From a virus, in the UHGV virus genome UHGV-0170560: a DNA stretch of 39,563 nucleotides. One strand, 5' to 3'. The translations under genes and the position numbers were made by a program. Positions 6,515 through 35,067 of the stretch are shown here, in pieces. Each line of letters starts with the position of its first letter. Position 1 is the first letter of the stretch. The notes under the pieces were generated by a model. It ran no database searches and was not told the DNA's origin. It worked only from the letters and a program-made list of their open reading frames with translations.

Positions 6515-6669
6515 TGCGTTAAGCACAGCTATATCCGAATTATGGTGGGCTGGGCAGGGGTCCGAAAGGACGCCGGTACCACTTAGGCCGGTACGCCAAC
6601 CTTGTCCAGTTCACCACCAGTAATTGGCGTTGCGGTGGTGATTAAAATCACTAAGTGGAGATAACCACC

Positions 6670-7380
6670 ATGGCTAATGCTCAAACTGCCATCTTCAAAT
6701 TTGAATCTGTTAACCCTATCCGTTCCATCATTATCGATGGCCAACCATGGTTTGTAGCCCAAGACGTTTGTAGTGCGCTGCGTATCCAAAACGTCACCCA
6801 AGCACTTGAAAAACTGGATGATGATGAAAGGTCTATGTTCAACATAGGGCATGAACATCGTGCAATTTTTGACAGCCGAGTAAAAGAGATCAACATCATC
6901 TCCGAGTCAGGCCTCTACACACTGATCCTCCGCTGCCGCGACGCAGTGACACCAGGCACTATCCCCTACCGCTTTCGTAAATGGGTTACAGGTGAGGTTC
7001 TTCCTCAGATCCGCCGCACCGGAAGTTACATTAAAAACTCGCTCCCGCAGGAAGAACGCATAAAGATGGTTGCCGACCAGGTAGCCAACGCCACGGCGTC
7101 AGCAGTAATGCAGGCGATGAAGATAGAGAACAAAACCTACAGCGCCCCGCTGCAGCCCGGCTACCGCAGCCTGATTCACTCGCCGTCTGGTGTTCTCGGC
7201 CTGACGGAGAACTCACTGCTGATGAATCTGCTGAACCAGTTACAGGACGACGGGCACGACGTATCGGGCGCGGCGGCGGAGCTGACCACCATGTTCTGCT
7301 ACATCGTCGGTGTGAGTAAATGCCTGCGTGATATCCAGACCCACGCGGAATACATCAACGACAAGGCAGGGTTCTTCTGA
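6670..7380 (+). CDS. Antirepressor (Bro-N domain protein)
   Basis: 236 aa from ATG preceded by GGAG; N-terminal Bro-N hallmarks (WFVAQDVCSAL, ISESGLYTLIL, FRKWVTGEVLPQIRRTGSY). Confidence 0.8.
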   Translation: MANAQTAIFKFESVNPIRSIIIDGQPWFVAQDVCSALRIQNVTQALEKLDDDERSMFNIGHEHRAIFDSRVKEINIISESGLYTLILRCRDAVTPGTIPYRFRKWVTGEVLPQIRRTGSYIKNSLPQEERIKMVADQVANATASAVMQAMKIENKTYSAPLQPGYRSLIHSPSGVLGLTENSLLMNLLNQLQDDGHDVSGAAAELTTMFCYIVGVSKCLRDIQTHAEYINDKAGFF

Positions 7381-7596: not shown

Positions 7597-8136
7597 GTGT
7601 TAAGTGAAGAAATGCAATTTGCCATGGCTGTGGCTCAAATCGTAAGTGCAGTCGCGGTTTCGCTTGGCTTGTTCATAGCTATCGCTACTATTATTTATAA
7701 TGTAAATACAGCGAGAAAAGTACACACTTCAGTATTCCTTGGTGAAAGCAGGTTTGATGTAGATTATAAGAAAGGCCTATCTACTATGCGCCGCATTCAC
7801 GAATCGAACAAATCATTCCGCTCTTATATGTATCCAAGCAATGGGCAGGCTGATCTTACGGATGAAGAAAAGATAGAGAAGAGAGAAATAATTTACTGTC
7901 TAGGTTTCTACGAACGCATGGCTGTGAGCGTGAAGCGGAAAACTTATGATGAGACCATGATTAAGGAAGTATTTTACAGCTCCGTTGTAAATAACTATCA
8001 GATTGCGCTACCTCTTATACAAGCTATTAGAGAAAAAGAAAACATAAACACATATTTTAAAGAATATGAATGGTTGGCAACACGATGGAAGGATTGTCCA
8101 TTGAAGGATAAATCCCCATGGTACAAGTTTTGGTAA
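7597..8136 (+). CDS. Membrane-anchored accessory protein; candidate superinfection-exclusion/defence protein
   Basis: 179 aa, GTG start with GGAG RBS; N-terminal TM helix; markedly AT-rich relative to the structural genes; position matches the P22 immI/sieA neighbourhood next to the tailspike. Confidence 0.55.
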   Translation: MLSEEMQFAMAVAQIVSAVAVSLGLFIAIATIIYNVNTARKVHTSVFLGESRFDVDYKKGLSTMRRIHESNKSFRSYMYPSNGQADLTDEEKIEKREIIYCLGFYERMAVSVKRKTYDETMIKEVFYSSVVNNYQIALPLIQAIREKENINTYFKEYEWLATRWKDCPLKDKSPWYKFW

Positions 8137-8413: not shown

Positions 8414-8422
8414 TGTGACATG

Positions 8423-8719
8423 TCACGTTCCTTTTCTGAATGATAGCCGTTCGAAAAATGATGACATTCCACCGCAGACAATAGCAAAGATGATCCCACC
8501 AAAGAAGAGAAGGCCAGCCTGCCACCACTCCCACCGCCATACATCCACAGCACCAACCATACCAACAATCGCTCCAACAAATGGAATATAGCTCACGATG
8601 AAAGCAATGGGGGCTGCAATTATCCAGTGCAATCCCCACCATGATTCAAGCCCAGCCATAATTGCTGCCAACTGAAAAAGGCCAACGACGATATAAACAA
8701 TGAATCCTATCGCTTGCAT
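8423..8719 (-). CDS. Small integral membrane protein
   Basis: 98 aa, 3 hydrophobic helices, GGTG RBS; last gene of the minus-strand virion operon. Confidence 0.55.
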   Translation of the reverse strand: MQAIGFIVYIVVGLFQLAAIMAGLESWWGLHWIIAAPIAFIVSYIPFVGAIVGMVGAVDVWRWEWWQAGLLFFGGIIFAIVCGGMSSFFERLSFRKGT

Positions 8720-22703: not shown

Positions 22704-22996
22704 TCCTGTTCACTGGCCTCTTTGGCCATCTTCAAATACTGTTCAGGGCAATGCGCCATAACGCGCTGAAACAGTTCCAGCGCCAGATTGCGTTGCCCCT
22801 CATTAAATGCCATTGCCATAGCGTCCATCGGCGAGATAGCGGAAAACACACGGCCTTTCTCCAGCACCGACCAGACAACGCGACGCCCCTGTTCACTGCT
22901 CATGACAAAGCGAATGTCATCAATTTCACGCTGCGCCATGTCACGTTGCTTACGGGCGTTTTCTTCTTTCAGATGATCGTCTTCGTAATCTGTCAT
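22700..22996 (-). CDS. Hypothetical protein between portal and scaffold
   Basis: 98-aa ORF, overlap coupling at both ends. Confidence 0.5.
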   Translation of the reverse strand: MTDYEDDHLKEENARKQRDMAQREIDDIRFVMSSEQGRRVVWSVLEKGRVFSAISPMDAMAMAFNEGQRNLALELFQRVMAHCPEQYLKMAKEASEQE

Positions 22997-24672
22997 TGTG
23001 ATTGCCCACCCTGGCCACTAACTGCATTCGCCATAGCTGACAAAACACTCGGATCCGAAGTTTTAGCTTCGCTAAGCGTCTTGGCACCCTGTGCCGCCGC
23101 CATCCCCATCGCCATCATTTGTTGCTGCTGTTGCTGCTGTGCCCGTTGCTGGCGAGCCTGCTCAACCTGTTCCTGCGGAACAATGACGGTTGGAGACACT
23201 CCGGACATATCAGCGAATGCATCGATCGCCTGATCAACGTTGAGTTTGTCGAGAGCTTCTGGTTTCGCTTGCGCAAGTTGACCAATGAAGTTGACCGTGG
23301 ACGCCAGACTGGACAAGCCGATAGACTTCTGCGCCTGAGCCATGACGGAAATGTATTCGACCTTCAGGGGCATACCTTCCATCACGTCTGGCGGTGGCGG
23401 CAGCATGTTTTTACGCACCATCATCGAGAAAGCGCGGTCAATGAGAGGATTAAGACATTCGTCGTTCAGACGCTCCAGAACCGGCCCCAACATCAGAAGT
23501 TTTTCTTCTTTCATTTCGATCACCGCTTCAACAGGCATCGAGCGGGTATTGATGTTCTGCAACATCATGAACAGATCGACAAAGTAGGCGCTGTTAATGA
23601 TTTGACGAGTGTCCTGAATGTCTGCCACCAAATCTGCTGTACTGGGGTTAACCAGATAAGCAGGCCTGAAACCATCCTGACCAGTAATCTGATCGATATA
23701 CGTGATGTCGCCAGGAAGAAGGGAGGCACGCTGATTCTTGAGGGAAGTCGGAGCAACCATCGGCGGATTGGTGGCTTTATCAATCAACTGCGACTTGCGC
23801 TTCTGGAGAAGCTGCAATGCCTTAACAGGTCCAAGCGCCAGCATACCCGGGCATGATGATCCATAAACATCTTCGCCGTTAACTTCCCAGCGCGGAGCCA
23901 TAATTGGAAACTCATCGAATCCGGACTCACGCAACAACTTGTCGTTATCGCCGCCAACCTCGTAATAAACCGATTTGAATGGCTTGTTCTTGCTATCCAG
24001 CTTCGATGTATCGCGGTCAATGTTCGGGTAAACCGAATGCATCACTTCAATCCACTTCTCGTAGGTGCCGCTTTCCCACATGCTTTTTACGGATTCGCTG
24101 ACGTTATTTAGCCCGAACTCCTGAACAAGCTGACGAACAGTCATAGAGAACTTGCGAAAACAGGTGTCCACACTGCCACGAGGTGAGTTAGCCAGGTAGT
24201 AACTGCCTATCGGGAATGGCATTGTGCGAATGATGTCCTCGTCATCCTCCAGCACTGCCATTGCACCAGTGCTGTATGTGCCGAGGCTTCCGTATAACTG
24301 CGGCAGCGACTGATAGAGATTCGACTTATTGAACATATCGTTCATGCGGTTCTGCACCGCCTCAAGCCACAACTTAACAGGGCCATAATCCATCATTTCA
24401 GGATCTGGCGTAGCCAGGCGAAACCACGGACGCGCGGGGCTTGTGATGCCTGACATCATGCCGCTGGCGAGAGTGCGCGCCGCCATAGTCCCGGTCGAAT
24501 CAATAATGCGTGTATTGCGCCGATCGTTACGGTTGACCTCAGAAGTCAGAAAGCGGGAACCACGCGGGTTGATGTAATCACTCAACTCGCGCCAGTGCGG
24601 CTCGAACGACTGACGCTCGCTTTCAAGTTGTGCGAACTGTTTGTTCAATCGCTCTTTAGTTGTTTCCGCCAT
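22993..24672 (-). CDS. Portal protein (T7 gp8-like)
   Basis: 559 aa; C-terminal Q-rich/MAMGMAAAQG region resembles the T7 gp8 C-terminus by recollection; lies after the terminase region. Confidence 0.8.
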   Translation of the reverse strand: MAETTKERLNKQFAQLESERQSFEPHWRELSDYINPRGSRFLTSEVNRNDRRNTRIIDSTGTMAARTLASGMMSGITSPARPWFRLATPDPEMMDYGPVKLWLEAVQNRMNDMFNKSNLYQSLPQLYGSLGTYSTGAMAVLEDDEDIIRTMPFPIGSYYLANSPRGSVDTCFRKFSMTVRQLVQEFGLNNVSESVKSMWESGTYEKWIEVMHSVYPNIDRDTSKLDSKNKPFKSVYYEVGGDNDKLLRESGFDEFPIMAPRWEVNGEDVYGSSCPGMLALGPVKALQLLQKRKSQLIDKATNPPMVAPTSLKNQRASLLPGDITYIDQITGQDGFRPAYLVNPSTADLVADIQDTRQIINSAYFVDLFMMLQNINTRSMPVEAVIEMKEEKLLMLGPVLERLNDECLNPLIDRAFSMMVRKNMLPPPPDVMEGMPLKVEYISVMAQAQKSIGLSSLASTVNFIGQLAQAKPEALDKLNVDQAIDAFADMSGVSPTVIVPQEQVEQARQQRAQQQQQQQMMAMGMAAAQGAKTLSEAKTSDPSVLSAMANAVSGQGGQSQ

Positions 24673-24686
24673 TTCAATGACTCCGG

Positions 24687-24893
24687 TTACTGACCAAGTA
24701 GCGTTTTACCGCTGGTATTAGCGGTTGATGTGTCGCCCTGAGAACCGGTAAGCAGCGTAGAACTACGACCAGCAGCAGCGCGACGGCGACGAGTTTCTTC
24801 GTCGCGGGCATCAACAACGGCGGCATCCTGCTCCTGTGGTGCTGCCTGAACTTCTGGTGTTGCAGGCACTGATGGTGAGCTACCCATGCACAT
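24687..24893 (-). CDS. Hypothetical small Ala/Gln-rich protein upstream of portal
   Basis: 68 aa with GGAG RBS at 9-nt spacing; preferred over the overlapping 79-aa ORF, which would need a TTG start. Confidence 0.4.
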   Translation of the reverse strand: MCMGSSPSVPATPEVQAAPQEQDAAVVDARDEETRRRRAAAGRSSTLLTGSQGDTSTANTSGKTLLGQ

Positions 24894-25320
24894 ATCAATG
24901 ACTCCGTACGCAATTAAATTATTACCAATTTAACCACATATGATTTATTTATCGTAGATAGTTGACATTTTATGCACGAATTATTACCTTTTGGGTAACC
25001 AAAGAGTTCATTCCGGTTACTAACCTGACTGGCTTGTCGTTAAATTGAACAGGTGGAGTGAGCTTTTATTTTGAGCAGTACGGCGTATGGCACATGCGCC
25101 GATAGCGGTCTGGATACGTTTAAGGGGCACCCTCCCTTGCTCGGGCAAACGAACCAGGTAGCCGGAATGTGCAAGTCGAGCGGTTTTATTCCGCGCACGG
25201 GGATTCACCATCCCGGCGATTCGGTGTGACGCCTCGGAAGAGACGAGGGTACAACGATGAGAGCATTTATGGAGCCGCGACAAAGTGTGGCGCCTTAACA
25301 GGCTAAGTGCTCTCAGCGTT

Positions 25321-25397
25321 GTGGCATTAGCTCAGTTGGACAGAGCAACCGCCTTCTAAGCGGTTGGCCGCAGGTTCGAATCCTGCATGCCACGCCA
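25321..25397 (+). tRNA. tRNA-Arg (anticodon UCU), CCA encoded
   Basis: Hand-folded cloverleaf: acceptor GTGGCAT/ATGCCAC, D-stem GCTC/GAGC, anticodon stem ACCGC/GCGGT with loop CTTCTAA, T-stem GCAGG/CCTGC with TTCGAAT loop; argU-like. Confidence 0.9.
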
Positions 25398-25439
25398 GAA
25401 TCACGCCTAAGGACCGTGATGCCAGAAGTTCAAGGGCTT

Positions 25440-25481
25440 GGCGGTGATGGTTTCCCTTGAAGGACTATCACCGCCCTTTTT
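25440..25481 (+). terminator. Terminator-like hairpin after the tRNA
   Basis: 9-bp stem GGCGGTGAT/ATCACCGCC followed by CTTTTT. Confidence 0.6.
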
Positions 25482-25559
25482 ACAGCAGGACGCCATTGCG
25501 ATGACTTCATGCTGTAAACCAGTACAGCCACGGAAGGCATAACTCATTGCTTCCAGTTC

Positions 25560-25584
25560 GCCCGGTTCGTCCGGGCATTTTTTT
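25560..25584 (+). terminator. Rho-independent terminator
   Basis: Stem GCCCGG/CCGGGC with loop TTCGT followed by a 7-T run. Confidence 0.7.
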
Positions 25585-25637
25585 GCCTGTAGGTTACCTT
25601 ACAGGTATCATCGAAATTCACATAGCAAGGAGGAATT

Positions 25638-25820
25638 ATGACTGACCAGGTTTATGATTTAACTAAAATTACCGAGATTGAACAGACTAACGATGCGCAA
25701 AGAGCAAACTTCCTTTTAGGAAGCGGATGGGTATTACTCAAGGTAACTGAAACGCAATTCCATGATAACTATGGTGCTTTAAAAGCAGACGTGGTTTTCA
25801 CATTAGGCAATCCACAGTAA
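25638..25820 (+). CDS. Hypothetical small protein (moron)
   Basis: 60 aa, AGGAGG RBS, followed by a hairpin at 25829-25851. Confidence 0.5.
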   Translation: MTDQVYDLTKITEIEQTNDAQRANFLLGSGWVLLKVTETQFHDNYGALKADVVFTLGNPQ

Positions 25821-25895
25821 TTGTTAATAGCCCGCCCTATGCGGGCTCTTTAGTGTGGCAAGATCAGTTATATTATTTTCCGCAGCGAGCCAGCA

Positions 25896-26177
25896 ATGAA
25901 ATTAAAACAGAAGATCGTTAATGCCTTTGTGAATTCAACACATGAGTGGAATATGGCAATGCACAATGCCATCGAGAGAAAAGTACATGAAGGATTTAAA
26001 GATACCTTCCCAAATGGACTGAAGGATCCAGAGGAAACAGAGGAAAGAATCGAGTCCATGCGCACATTCTATTACCAGCGAATGATGAATACAGCCTCCT
26101 TGCTTCTAACAGGCTCATCGCTAATCATCGCTTTAATAGCTCTGCTTGTGGCAATGGTCTCAATCCACTATGCATAG
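25896..26177 (+). CDS. Hypothetical small C-terminally membrane-anchored protein (moron)
   Basis: 93 aa, AT-rich, C-terminal TM helix; converges on the TerL 3' end. Confidence 0.5.
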   Translation: MKLKQKIVNAFVNSTHEWNMAMHNAIERKVHEGFKDTFPNGLKDPEETEERIESMRTFYYQRMMNTASLLLTGSSLIIALIALLVAMVSIHYA

Positions 26178-27643
26178 GGGTCGTAATCTGTGACCGCTTT
26201 CCCCTGCTGGCTCTCCTGACCAAGAATGCGCAGGCGCTTCGTAACCGGGAACGCAAACGTCAGCAGTAGCGCATCGCCTTTACCCGGCGAACGCCCAAGC
26301 CGCTCCTTGATATCTTCCTTCGGTTCGATAACGATTTTACCGTCCACGCGAACTTTGTACTCTGCCGCCGACAGGTCGTCCGCTGTTTCCTGGTCATCCA
26401 GCATGCCGCCCAGCCTCAGCCATGTCTTGCATGAGTTGAACATCTCCCCACGCTTGTTAAGCATCTGCGGGTCAGTAGACGCGCCACCGAACGGAACAAG
26501 TTGCCATGTACGCCCCCAACCGTCACCGATTGACTTCAGACCGGTACCGTAACCGAAGTCGATGAACACCGCGTCAGCCTGGTACTGGTCTTCAAAGTCA
26601 GCGATACGCTTCGCCATAATCAGATCGTCGGTGGTCTTGTTACCAGTCCATAGCACCTTACTGTGCAGCCCCTGCCGCAGGTATATCACCGCGTCATCAA
26701 CGCCGGAGTATGCAGGGTCAACGCCGATTATCACCGGAGCATGTGCAACCTGCGCAGCAGTTACCACCCGTTTCATTGCCTCGTCAGTAAGTCCGGTAGG
26801 GATAAACTGCAATTCAGATGCATCCGGGAATATGCCGCGCACACGGATTTTAACGAAGTCGCTGTCTTCCCCGTAGTCATCAACCCATTTCTGCAACTGC
26901 TGTTTGTTAGTGCCTTCCACCGTCCGGCTGTCAATCTGCGCAGTTTTCCAGCGGTGTTTATATTTGCGGAAACATTCGCGGAAACGACCGGTATTACGCG
27001 TCGGGTTCCCGAACGCCACCCAGATGATTTCGGTGTCTTCGTCCGTCAGCGCACCCTCTGCTACCTCCCACACCAGATCCGCAATGTTCGACGCTTCATC
27101 GAATACCACGATGATGCGTTTGCGCTCGTTGTGTAGTCCGGCGAATGCCTCAGTGTTGTGCTCAGACCAGGGGATTGCGTCAGCTCGCCACCGCTTGTCG
27201 TGCCCAGGGTCATTGCTGTACATCGCGGTAGCGGTACAGGTAAACCAGTCTTTCGTGATAGCAAGGTTCGACCACTTGATAATTTCCGGCCAGGTCTTCG
27301 TTCGTAGCTGGTTGTCGGTGTTGGCGGTCACCACGACCTTACAATCCTCGCAAGTGGACATGCCCCAGTTGATCAGCATTGAGATGAATGCTGATTTACC
27401 AATACCGTGACCAGAAGCACGTGCCAGCATAATCGGCTGATAGCGCGTCTCTGGATTCTGCAGGTGGTCACGTATCTCTCGGAACGCATCAGCCTGCCAC
27501 TGACGTGGGCCGGTAGCATGTGCCAGTTCAGTCCCCTCTTCCCCCCACGGGAACGCATAGAGGGCATAGCCAAGCGGATCGTGAGTGAACCCTGCAATAT
27601 CCTCGATTAACTGCTCTTCAGGAGATAACGCTGTATCTGTCAC
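26168..27643 (-). CDS. Terminase large subunit
   Basis: 491 aa; Walker A-like GHGIGKS, Walker B-like IIVVFDEAS, C-terminal nuclease-type acidic motifs; ATGA-coupled to TerS. Confidence 0.85.
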   Translation of the reverse strand: MTDTALSPEEQLIEDIAGFTHDPLGYALYAFPWGEEGTELAHATGPRQWQADAFREIRDHLQNPETRYQPIMLARASGHGIGKSAFISMLINWGMSTCEDCKVVVTANTDNQLRTKTWPEIIKWSNLAITKDWFTCTATAMYSNDPGHDKRWRADAIPWSEHNTEAFAGLHNERKRIIVVFDEASNIADLVWEVAEGALTDEDTEIIWVAFGNPTRNTGRFRECFRKYKHRWKTAQIDSRTVEGTNKQQLQKWVDDYGEDSDFVKIRVRGIFPDASELQFIPTGLTDEAMKRVVTAAQVAHAPVIIGVDPAYSGVDDAVIYLRQGLHSKVLWTGNKTTDDLIMAKRIADFEDQYQADAVFIDFGYGTGLKSIGDGWGRTWQLVPFGGASTDPQMLNKRGEMFNSCKTWLRLGGMLDDQETADDLSAAEYKVRVDGKIVIEPKEDIKERLGRSPGKGDALLLTFAFPVTKRLRILGQESQQGKAVTDYDPYA

Positions 27644-28236
27644 TGATTACCATCCTGACGTTCTTTGAGTCGCTTCCTGGCTGCTGCTATGCGATCAGCA
27701 ATTGTCACATTCACATTAACATCCAGACGTTCTTTGAACGCGTTGACATCAACATGCTTACCAATCAGTTCTAGGTTCTTCACCTTGTCAGGCCATTTAA
27801 TTTTTTTGAGGATTGTCTCTATCGAGTCCTCGTTCATGTTCATGATGGTCGATGACAGATCAAAGCCGCTAAGCGTAGTGCGCCAGATTTTCGGCCACTC
27901 ACGGATTGGTTTAAGGCTCCCATCGTCGTTGAGGATATCGATCACGTCCATCTGGTCGATCTCCACCAGGCGCATGAGAACGTAATCAGCACTGACGCGC
28001 ATTCGTTTGTTGCGCTCCTCCATCAACTCGGCAATCCGTTTTTGAATGCGTTCATCGCGCATCATAACACTGGCTTTAACTGCCGCTGTATTTGGGGAGA
28101 ATCCAGCGTTAATCGCAGCCTGAGTCTGGTTTTCAGGCGTTTTGATGTATGACTGGCAATAAGCCTCCTGCATTGCTGTGAGCGGCTTAAATTGCGTTGA
28201 TTTGCGTTTATAGGTTTTAGGTTCAGCAGGCATCAT
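27640..28236 (-). CDS. Terminase small subunit
   Basis: 198 aa from ATG (the track ORF starts at an upstream TTG); basic helix-rich protein immediately upstream of TerL. Confidence 0.6.
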   Translation of the reverse strand: MMPAEPKTYKRKSTQFKPLTAMQEAYCQSYIKTPENQTQAAINAGFSPNTAAVKASVMMRDERIQKRIAELMEERNKRMRVSADYVLMRLVEIDQMDVIDILNDDGSLKPIREWPKIWRTTLSGFDLSSTIMNMNEDSIETILKKIKWPDKVKNLELIGKHVDVNAFKERLDVNVNVTIADRIAAARKRLKERQDGNQ

Positions 28237-28354
28237 AACCACCCTGGTAATTGTTACCGTTGTGGTAATAGTACCATGCAAAATAAAGCCACCATAGTTG
28301 GCGGCAGTATTCAAAACCCATCAAATTCATCATGCATAATCTACTCGTGACATG

Positions 28355-28696
28355 TCACACTATTAATTTAGTTTCATGCCAGCCTTTAGTCACCCAGCAT
28401 TGCGAGTCACCATTACACGGGCATGAATTAACGGGAACTTTCTCGCCGCACTTACCGCAACGTTTTCTGCTAATCGATTTTATACGCCCGCGCACGCGTG
28501 CATCATCCTGGCGGATCAGTAACGCTATATACTCACCAAATTCGTAAGGAGAACGCCCGGGGCGACGCGTGGCACAGTTACGTTCCAGCATTTCAATTTC
28601 CTGAGTATCAAGCACAATCTCCAGCTTACGTACACCGGATTCAGCTTGTCTGGCTCTCTGAGCGGCTTTGCGCTCTGCTGCTGATTTAGCCATCAA
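28355..28696 (-). CDS. Hypothetical Cys-rich protein (possible zinc-binding)
   Basis: 113 aa with CGKCGE...CPCNG cluster; no HNH His signature recognised. Confidence 0.45.
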   Translation of the reverse strand: MMAKSAAERKAAQRARQAESGVRKLEIVLDTQEIEMLERNCATRRPGRSPYEFGEYIALLIRQDDARVRGRIKSISRKRCGKCGEKVPVNSCPCNGDSQCWVTKGWHETKLIV

Positions 28697-34836: not shown

Positions 34837-35067
34837 TCATGAGTAGAAGAAGTATGCCAGTTCTGCTTTTGAGCGCAGCCATTGTCTTGTTTTACAGGCT
34901 TTAAAAAGCCCATTCATCAATACTTTACCTGGCATTTTGCGCTTACCTGTTAAGTGAGTCTGGATATAGTGACTCGTCGTTCCGGCTTCCTGTGCGAAGG
35001 CTTCACGCTCATCCGGAGTAAGTGCAAGCCAGTGCTTTTTGAAATCGAAATGTCCGTTATCGCTCAT
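34837..35067 (-). CDS. Cro-like HTH regulator
   Basis: 76 aa with HTH-like segment EAFAQEAGTTSHYIQTHLTG; divergent from the repressor gene across an operator-rich intergenic region. Confidence 0.55.
   Translation of the reverse strand: MSDNGHFDFKKHWLALTPDEREAFAQEAGTTSHYIQTHLTGKRKMPGKVLMNGLFKACKTRQWLRSKAELAYFFYS

Follow-up and report, generated by a model that had tools for sequence, protein, structure and literature searches.

Morons, such as bor and lom of phage lambda and gene 15 of HK97, were defined for lambdoid phages, and their hallmark is expression from the repressed prophage. Small inner-membrane proteins for superinfection exclusion are likewise encoded by phages, including T4 Imm, which is an early gene product, HK97 gp15 and P22 SieA. 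A third kind of described system concerns regulation, namely repressor operators that are dispersed over the phage genome, as with the C1 operators of P1 and the 'stoperators' bound by gp71 of mycobacteriophage L5. Here we describe two small genes, p60 and p93, which occupy positions 25,638 to 26,177 of the UHGV virus genome UHGV-0170560, a stretch of 39,563 nucleotides hereafter called the window, and we compare them with these systems. The two genes are accessory cargo of a hypervariable slot between a tRNA-Arg gene and the terminase gene TerL, and the promoter of p60 contains one copy of a palindrome that is dispersed over the window and is probably the operator of the prophage repressor.

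The window is a temperate podophage prophage of the Uetakevirus (phiV10/epsilon15-like) group and of E. coli type. The regions flanking the two genes have 94-98% DNA identity to Escherichia phage phiV10, TerL and the portal are 98% and 99% identical to their phiV10 counterparts at the protein level, and the gene order is that of Uetakevirus, with TerS and TerL followed by the slot with its tRNA-Arg, a small gene and the portal gene. Similarity to phiV10 breaks off at 25584, where the T run of the second terminator behind the tRNA ends, and returns at 26169, in the TerL stop codon; the left break is at the same place when locus L012 is compared in place of phiV10. Between these terminators and the TerL stop (26168) lies the slot, for which close relatives hold at least seven alternative cargos. 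The original prediction, made from the letters alone, saw here two AT-rich plus-strand genes of 60 and 93 aa that converge on the 3′ end of TerL, and described them as acquired cargo of uncharacterised function. Both open reading frames (ORFs) are in place, RefSeq calls the same pair as hypothetical proteins (WP_096934093 and WP_096934092) in E. coli JNE25-001, and the genes lie on the strand opposite the late operon, with p93 overlapping the 3′ end of TerL by 10 nt. GC content is 0.385-0.46 over 25500-26200 and 0.39-0.41 in the two genes themselves, compared with 0.52-0.58 on either side, and such deviant composition is expected of morons.

Neither gene was found in any of the 77 IMG/VR relatives whose TerL is at least 98% identical. 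In these phages the slot carries a Gp49_66-family gene (~36 relatives, as in phiV10), a 140-aa phrog_4846 gene (~17), a 246-283-aa phrog_4780 gene for a membrane and coiled-coil protein (~12), or genes of 113, 115 or 64 aa; it is nearly empty in four, and in some relatives the near-empty slot amounts to a cargo of 135 nt. Among 5,426 complete E. coli genomes, ~900 of which have the slot flanks, the complete segment 25200-26300 was found in only four, all of them Japanese JNE strains with 99.4% identity. DNA of p60 occurs in eight of the 5,426 genomes, DNA of p93 in four and the pair in four. The p60-p93 content is thus a rare variant of a slot with hypervariable accessory cargo, and the phage can dispense with both genes, as phiV10 and ~99% of the related E. 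coli prophages are without them. The comparison of presence and absence that the original prediction had proposed, with absence from the 77 relatives and phiV10 and presence in 4-8 of the ~900 flank-bearing E. coli genomes, bears out its view of the genes as cargo, as does the occurrence in some phages and absence from close relatives at the same position that is typical of morons. A reading of the genes as one inserted unit and of p60 as a recent acquisition did not stand, as p60 is an old occupant of the slot across genera.

p60 and p93 are two separable modules and not a single insertion. In prophages of Serratia, Salmonella and Klebsiella (L017, L020, L023) p60 has the slot to itself and lies 27-30 nt away from the stop of TerL; in the commonest variant of E. 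coli (L013) a 199-aa gene comes after it, and in Hafnia (L008) a 249-aa gene. It stands directly before p93 in two lineages only, those of the window and of a Kluyvera prophage. p93 is always flush against the TerL stop, and where p60 is missing it follows a Gp49_66 gene, a Gp49_66 gene plus a 76-aa gene, a 140-aa-like fragment or no recognised gene. At this junction the palindromic sequence CTATGCATAG encodes -Tyr-Ala-stop on both strands, so the 3′ ends of p93 and TerL, each made up of two codons and a stop, are reverse complements. The 10-nt overlap recurs in loci L026-L028 and L049, and a 4-nt TTAA/TTAG overlap is present in L006 and L035. An obligate pair, whether toxin-antitoxin or another two-component system, was rejected because the genes occur together in two lineages only.

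Homologues of p93 with 56-59% identity are also found in another phage type, downstream of holin, endolysin and Rz genes. Right after this p93 lies the 3′ end of a Uetakevirus TerL, 68-82 nt long and 87-97% identical to Klebsiella locus L023. This remnant is a molecular fossil of the origin of the p93 module, which was therefore exported from the slot together with a piece of TerL, and p93 is a mobile add-on. The contigs of this type have the lysis cassette upstream and an unrelated 434-aa TerL downstream. We considered p93 as a component of the lysis cassette, as it follows Rz in L035 and L041, and rejected this on two grounds: the Uetakevirus copies lie at a distance from the lytic genes and antisense to them, and the lambdoid-type copies carry the TerL fossil, which shows that they were imported. 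A profile search of the genome contigs with the p93 alignment returned the known Kluyvera locus and one spurious match only.

Features of the p60-p93 slot, its surroundings and related loci (positions are those of the window unless a locus is named)
Feature	Position	Strand	Basis or remark
p60 promoter TTGCCT-17-TATCAT	25583..25611	+	Promoter match; kept in 6 orthologous loci
Shine-Dalgarno AAGGAGG, 4 nt upstream of p60 ATG	25627..25633	+	Sequence; kept as CACACAGCAAGGAGG in orthologous loci
p60, 60 aa, acidic soluble protein	25638..25820	+	ORF
Hairpin AGCCCGC-CCTAT-GCGGGCT	25829..25847	+	-13.0 kcal/mol
Putative degenerate extended -10 TGGCAAGAT	25856..25864	+	Alignment upstream of p93; not called by promoter scan
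p93, 93 aa, predicted tail-anchored inner-membrane protein	25896..26177	+	ORF
Palindromic 10-nt overlap CTATGCATAG	26168..26177	both	Sequence; inverted repeat I5
TerL, terminase large subunit, right slot border	26168..27643	-	ORF list; phiV10 homology
tRNA-Arg, anticodon TCT, reads AGA	25321..25397	+	ARAGORN; Rfam tRNA 73.3 bits; annotated in relatives
Two intrinsic-terminator-like hairpins 3′ of tRNA	25440..25584	+	Terminator scan, folding energies
Promoter-like TTGACA-17-TACCTT with palindrome TACCTTTTGGGTA (24985-24997)	24962..24997	+	Upstream of tRNA-Arg unit
Palindrome starts	6007, 6387, 7454, 10435, 24985, 25595, 32760, 32822, 34768, 35105, 35136, 35153, 35865		
Repressor-like gene, 194 aa, double helix-turn-helix	35222-35806	+	Pfam HTH_3 1.2e-9
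cro-like gene	34837-35067	-	
TerS	27640-28314	-	
68-aa gene	24687-24893	-	
Portal gene	22993-24672	-	
TerL 3′-end remnants after p93	L035 4286-4353, L037 4280-4359, L041 4284-4365		

The p60 gene is preceded by the same unit in all seven lineages examined: a terminator hairpin with T7, TTGCCT or TTGCTT, a spacer with TACCTnnnAGGTA, TATCAT or TATTAT, CACACAGCAAGGAGG and the ATG. In the same seven lineages the hairpin AGCCCGC...GCGGGCT follows the p60 stop. A match to the promoter consensus taken by itself is not above chance (2 found against 2.3 expected). In the window, the perfect palindrome TACCTTACAGGTA at 25595-25607 overlaps the promoter spacer and the first two bases of the -10. The original prediction had given the two genes a palindrome-associated promoter of their own and a hairpin at 25829-25851. 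The promoter is present and is conserved in six other loci, whereas the palindrome is not private to it, having 13 copies in the window; the hairpin, at 25829-25847, is the terminator shared by these slots and here has no U tract, with CTTTAGTG in place of T6.

The same hairpin with a run of T5-6 lies 3′ of p60 in loci that have only p60 and 5′ of p93 in loci without p60. It is a shared slot terminator, probably leaky in the window, and likely the recombination joint at which the p93 module was added to p60. In the p60-less loci the hairpin with T6 is followed, upstream of p93, by an extended -10 (TGGCATAAT, TGCTATGAT, TGTGATAAT or TGATATCAT) and no palindrome, and an extended -10 of the form TGnTAtnAT is found at this place in all of them. 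The counterpart of TGGCATAAT in the window is TGGCAAGAT, where the -10 has decayed to CAAGAT; it is possibly a weak promoter for p93 itself, which has a weak Shine-Dalgarno sequence (GCGAG). Both the U tract of the hairpin and the -10 of p93 are degenerate in both loci that have p60 and p93 together (window and Kluyvera), so transcription of the two genes from the p60 promoter is probable, and this suggests that the cassettes have been fused into one operon. As expected of a moron, the cassette has a candidate promoter and terminator of its own, with the p60 promoter and the hairpin kept across genera and the extended -10 of p93 degenerate here. On the minus strand of the slot the scan called neither a promoter nor a terminator, and late transcription, on its way from TerS and TerL to the portal gene, is therefore expected to traverse the cassette antisense.

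The pattern TACC[TC]NNN[AG]GGT[AG] was found at 13 sites in the window, compared with 0.17 expected; no more than 2 turned up in any of 200 dinucleotide shuffles. All but one of the 13 sites are intergenic. The element measures 13-17 bp and can be written (AT)TACCTnnnRGGTR(AT); most copies have a right half-site that reaches into the first bases of a -10. Three copies are within the 154-bp gap between the cro-like and the repressor-like gene, and another lies after the terminator of the repressor gene, ahead of the recombination genes. Others are found in the Bro-N/antirepressor region, between genes of the early operon, and at the TTGACA-17-TACCTT promoter upstream of the tRNA. This last arrangement, TTGACA-N17-palindrome before the tRNA, is kept in phiV10 and in the Kluyvera, Salmonella and IMG/VR loci, and it appears to mark the start of the plus-strand transcription unit of the slot. 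The layout of the palindromes is shared by the JNE25-001 prophage (L050), including a site upstream of int, and by the Hafnia locus. Additionally, the palindrome is present in the promoters of alternative second-position genes of 199 aa (L013) and 272 aa (L011).

The simplest reading of this distribution is that the palindrome would be the operator of the prophage repressor, with the promoters of the tRNA and of p60 belonging to the repressed (early) regulon. As the p60 promoter carries the dispersed operator, p60 would probably be under the control of the repressor, which would keep it silent in the lysogen and allow its expression early after infection or induction. The check for expression in the lysogen that had been proposed for these genes would probably come out negative for p60. 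As with the C1 operators of P1 and the L5 gp71 sites, a short site recurs at more than 10 places in the genome, nearly all of them intergenic, at the immunity region and at scattered promoters that include those of accessory genes. Unlike those sites, that of the window is truly palindromic and merges with the -10 of promoters of sigma-70 type, and its binding by the 194-aa protein with two helix-turn-helix regions is what we infer from the sequence. This putative repressor has a YdaS-like region at residues 21-61 and HTH_3 at 106-147, and a double helix-turn-helix is unusual for a phage repressor of short palindromes. p60 itself was rejected as the DNA-binding factor of the palindrome because it is acidic, its fold is neither ribbon-helix-helix nor helix-turn-helix, and the palindrome regulon is present in phages without p60.

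Homologues of p60 form 28 clusters, in which the proteins have 59-60 aa apart from a few fragments and extended calls; they come from E. coli, Salmonella, Klebsiella, Serratia, Citrobacter, Enterobacter, Hafnia and Kluyvera. Against the window copy, the ratio of nonsynonymous to synonymous substitution rates (dN/dS) is 0.06-0.13, with dS of 0.9-2.7. p60 is a long-standing, co-diverging occupant of the slot across Enterobacterales and is rare only among the phiV10-type phages of E. coli. The p93 family has 19 clusters when grouped at 90% identity, or 61 representatives when grouped at 50%, and consists almost entirely of proteins of 88-99 aa; it is common in Salmonella prophages, where one 93-aa cluster member was found on 632 contigs, and its dN/dS against the window copy is 0.03-0.08. 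Homologues of both proteins are conserved in length in at least eight genera, down to 48-60% identity, and dS is saturated in these comparisons with dN/dS well under 1. The original prediction had allowed for genes that are conserved nowhere; both families are conserved, at a dN/dS of 0.03-0.13.

The 60-aa protein has a net charge of about -4, and its AlphaFold2 model (pLDDT 90) is a beta-alpha-beta-beta domain. In a Foldseek search its closest structural match was a DUF4177 protein of 54 aa from a virus (E 4.9e-4, TM-scores 0.65/0.72, 30% identity), and the fold also weakly resembles DUF1737 proteins, the label that UniRef gives to one Klebsiella member of the family. The predicted p60 structure shares the small alpha/beta fold of DUF4177 and DUF1737; unlike proteins of those families, none of 23 p60-family members matched the Pfam models (PF13783 and PF08410) even at E<=10, and as both DUFs are functionally uncharacterised the likeness provides no mechanism. 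Searches of Pfam, PHROG, PADLOC, NCBIfam and PDB gave nothing significant for p60. Assignment to the Vsr-like REase_MTES_1575 family (PF18741) was rejected, the match reaching 14.5 bits against a cut-off of 38.2 and covering only the C-terminal 36 profile positions; a 60-aa beta-alpha-beta-beta fold is too small for the core of a PD-(D/E)xK nuclease, and the JGI name 'Vsr' on one p60 homologue is unsupported. As an acidic, single-domain protein with no catalytic signature, p60 would most likely act by binding another protein.

The C-terminal anchor that the original prediction had proposed for p93 agrees with its hydrophobicity and with its model. The final ~25 residues are the sole hydrophobic segment (70-88), with a peak of 2.59 at residue 70 (Kyte-Doolittle, 19-residue window), and the AlphaFold2 model (pLDDT 90.3) is a helical hairpin, H3-37 and H45-92, whose second helix reaches the C terminus as a single transmembrane (TM) helix would in a tail-anchored protein. 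According to the model, a cytoplasmic hairpin (residues 3-37 and 45-65) runs into a TM helix at ~66-90, which would leave ~65 conserved residues in the cytoplasm and ~3 in the periplasm. At the membrane interface lies the nearly invariant motif FYYQRMxNT, in which Y59, Y60, Q61, R62, M63, N65 and T66 are invariant; W18, N19, H23 and E27 are further invariant residues. The TM helix has an invariant face of small residues (S75, A82, A86), which would fit a TM-TM contact with p93 itself or with a host membrane protein. As with T4 Imm, HK97 gp15 and P22 SieA, p93 is a small accessory inner-membrane protein encoded by a phage, and it would parallel Imm if expressed early. Unlike Imm, gp15 and SieA, it is predicted to be tail-anchored, with its bulk in the cytoplasm, and no similarity to the exclusion proteins Imm, SieA, SieB and gp15 was found in Pfam, PHROG, BFVD or PDB. 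The E. coli proteins ElaB, YqjD and YgaM (DUF883) resemble p93 in size (~100 aa), in the helical N-terminal part that lies in the cytoplasm and in the single TM anchor at the C terminus; p93 differs from them in that it has no Pfam DUF883 match, has a motif of its own and is phage-borne.

No match above threshold was obtained for p93 in Pfam, PHROGs, NCBIfam, PADLOC or PDB, and Foldseek against BFVD gave nothing (best E 1.1). For both proteins, their alignments and their remote and long homologues, the searches yielded sub-threshold noise only (MTES_1575, Hol_Tox, LptG, MobP2, designed beta-trefoils and DUF4231), and no PADLOC-DB v2 family was matched by p60, p93 or three long p93 homologues. 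The cassette belongs to no exclusion, defence, toxin or nuclease family tested, and the description of its function as uncharacterised agrees with this absence of Pfam, PHROG, PADLOC and PDB matches. A literature search on phiV10 and epsilon15 morons, Uetakevirus exclusion, tail-anchored prophage proteins, DUF4177 and SPC32H operators, the coverage of which did not extend to the SPC32H and epsilon15 genome papers, returned nothing on p60 or p93.

On balance we lean towards two accessory cassettes in the Uetakevirus slot, with early expression gated by the repressor and a role against competitors or in modulating the host. The two independent cassettes are stacked in the stretch bounded by the tRNA-Arg terminators and the stop codon of TerL, and their direction is opposite to that of the late operon, in which TerS and TerL come first and the portal gene follows. 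The first consists of a sigma-70 promoter with a built-in copy of the probable operator, a strong Shine-Dalgarno sequence, p60 and the hairpin, and the second of the remnant of an extended -10 and p93, inserting flush at the TerL stop. The unit would be silent in the lysogen, fire early after infection or induction, and be shut off once opposing late transcription runs through it. p93 might have its effect in the inner membrane, where it could for instance exclude superinfecting phage or, through the small-residue face of its TM helix, modulate a membrane protein, and p60 might act as a cytoplasmic inhibitor or adaptor.

We place most confidence in the structural and regulatory description and little in the functional assignment. 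Several observations weigh against the joint reading. It is the distribution of the palindromes alone that points to repressor binding, and the flanks of the p60 copy (GT...TC) deviate from the extended ATTACCT...AGGTAAT consensus, so repression at this promoter could be weak. Neither protein resembles a known exclusion, defence or anti-defence protein in PADLOC, Pfam, PHROGs, BFVD or PDB, and the bulk of p93 is predicted to be cytoplasmic, which is unexpected for a protein that blocks DNA entry from the periplasmic side. Moreover, tblastn of p60 and p93 against 50,697 deposited phage genomes gave no match.

The alternative that survives best, which we nevertheless regard as unlikely, is that p60 and p93 are classical morons that are expressed constitutively from the prophage and benefit the lysogen through superinfection exclusion or fitness. 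The locus shares with morons a self-contained cassette of promoter, ORF and hairpin that is AT-rich, lies between conserved virion and packaging genes on the strand opposite the late operon and is patchy among relatives. The operator-free extended -10 of p93 in loci without p60 is compatible with constitutive expression, and the abundance of p93 in Salmonella prophages (the 632 contigs of one cluster member) also speaks for this explanation. What sets the locus apart from morons is that p60 is a conserved occupant of the slot in several genera and not a sporadic insertion, and that its promoter contains an operator-like palindrome, which makes expression from a repressed prophage doubtful. This palindrome, a perfect copy of that in the repressor/cro region and at other early promoters, overlaps the -10, a position at which binding would repress, and in the window the promoter of p93 has decayed to CAAGAT.

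A role of p93 as a small toxin that depolarises the inner membrane, be it holin-like, type-I-toxin-like or an effector of abortive infection, with its antidote or regulator supplied by p60 or by the late transcript in antisense, is improbable. The TM segment does give matches to Hol_Tox (PF16935), at 15.3 bits for p93 and 14.9-17.6 for its remote homologues; all are under the curated cut-off of 23.3 and confined to the hydrophobic helix. One long p93 homologue has a weak DUF4231/SLATT-like match (E 0.0097), also below the curated cut-off, and there is no PADLOC match. The face formed by S75, A82 and A86 is compatible with oligomerisation, and full antisense overlap with the late operon would supply built-in antisense control. 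However, p93 is usually found without p60 and vice versa, which leaves no obligate toxin-antidote pair, and the conserved cytoplasmic hairpin of 65 residues far exceeds what type I toxins have.

We give even less credence to a purely regulatory role, in which transcripts started on the plus strand at the promoters of the tRNA and p60 run into the late operon in the interval from TerL to the portal gene and thereby tune or delay expression of the structural genes, the ORFs being secondary. Two operator-bearing plus-strand promoters do face the late operon in every relative, whatever the cargo, and no minus-strand terminator or promoter was detected in the slot, but purifying selection on the two encoded proteins is strong (dN/dS 0.03-0.13) and some of their residues are invariant, which is unexpected for ORFs that count only as transcribed DNA, and the slot is almost empty in some relatives. 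That one or both ORFs are annotation artefacts in a non-coding AT-rich spacer, as their shortness, the lack of a database family match and the weak p93 Shine-Dalgarno sequence might suggest, is effectively refuted by the conservation of length and sequence in at least eight genera, the dN/dS well below 1 at saturated dS, the pLDDT of 90 for both models and the strong, conserved Shine-Dalgarno sequence before p60.

Other cargos of the slot, and the window beyond it, provided several side observations. The 199-, 249- and 272-aa cargos (L013 4283-4882, L008 5279-6028 and L011 1921-2739) are homologous to each other and belong to phrog_4780, with an N-terminal membrane domain and a long coiled coil; their matches to SMC-like defence proteins (DndD, LmuB, JetC) are sub-threshold and of coiled-coil type. 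They are a further uncharacterised family of membrane proteins under the same operator-promoter. In the 272/283-aa variant, represented by the prophage of E. coli 201609 (L011 1880-1925) and by IMG/VR loci of the L073 type, the palindrome promoter ends in AGGTATAATC and the annotated ATG follows directly, so the mRNA would be leaderless or nearly so unless an upstream in-frame start is used. The region of the DUF4760 gene (Pfam 1.6e-30; window 7597-8136) and the Bro-N antirepressor-like gene (6655-7380) is flanked by palindromes, and the JNE25-001 prophage has two YafO-family toxin genes at this position. The region is therefore another accessory locus with variable content, and the window and the JNE prophage are mosaic relatives, not copies of one another.

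A second perfect palindrome, GTGACATGTCAC, adjoins terminator hairpins at module borders (window 8415-8426 and 28347-28358; L002 3277-3288). It is found at the end of the late operon, upstream of TerS, after the slot gene of phiV10 and ahead of the p93 hairpin in relatives, and it lies upstream of p93 in L026-L033, L006 and L035-L041, which include contigs that are not from Uetakeviruses. Its count in the window is not above chance (3 against 1.7 expected, with two mismatches allowed) but its placement recurs strikingly, and it might serve as a linker, as a joint for recombination or as a site bound by a protein.

Of the two hairpins behind the tRNA-Arg, the first (25440-25475, followed by a T run) has a folding energy of -22.8 kcal/mol, and the second (25560-25576, with T7 ending at 25584), which forms the left border of the slot, -13.1 kcal/mol. 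The tRNA was the sole match in an Rfam scan of 24600-26400. A stretch of ~110 nt upstream of and overlapping the start of the tRNA gene (25215-25327) is 91-93% identical to unannotated parts of the lambdoid phages cdtI, mEp460 and 2H10; it matched no Rfam family and could be a tRNA-processing leader or the remnant of a tRNA cluster. Codon counts over the whole window showed that AGA, the codon read by this tRNA-Arg(UCU), is absent from the genes for TerL, TerS, the portal, the major capsid protein and the repressor. AGA is frequent in AT-rich or exchangeable genes, with 14 codons in the tailspike gene (16 per 1000 codons), 6 in the O-like replication gene and 3 in the DUF4760 gene, and it makes up 3 of the 5 arginine codons of p60 and p93. 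The tRNA may mainly serve genes that are exchanged horizontally.

A wider version of the joint reading, which we put forward tentatively and consider rather doubtful as a whole, would make the slot a repressor-gated locus antisense in the late operon that is on only between derepression and late transcription. Its interchangeable cargos (p60, the p93 family, phrog_4780, Gp49_66 and others) would form a reservoir of uncharacterised early anti-competitor or anti-defence proteins, and p93 would found a new family of tail-anchored proteins of the inner membrane for exclusion or the modulation of defence that hop between phage types together with a piece of TerL.

Variable slots of temperate phages tend to gather exclusion, defence and anti-defence genes, and the slot described here is present in about one-sixth of complete E. 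coli genomes and in many prophages of Salmonella, Klebsiella and Serratia. In other respects the locus is a case of ordinary phage mosaicism with two unannotated protein families. These p60 and p93 families are conserved, under selection and confidently modelled, which makes them cheap candidates for phage-challenge assays. As for timing, the architecture of the promoters suggests that p60 and the other operator-driven cargos may be better viewed as early lytic functions than as morons expressed in the lysogen.

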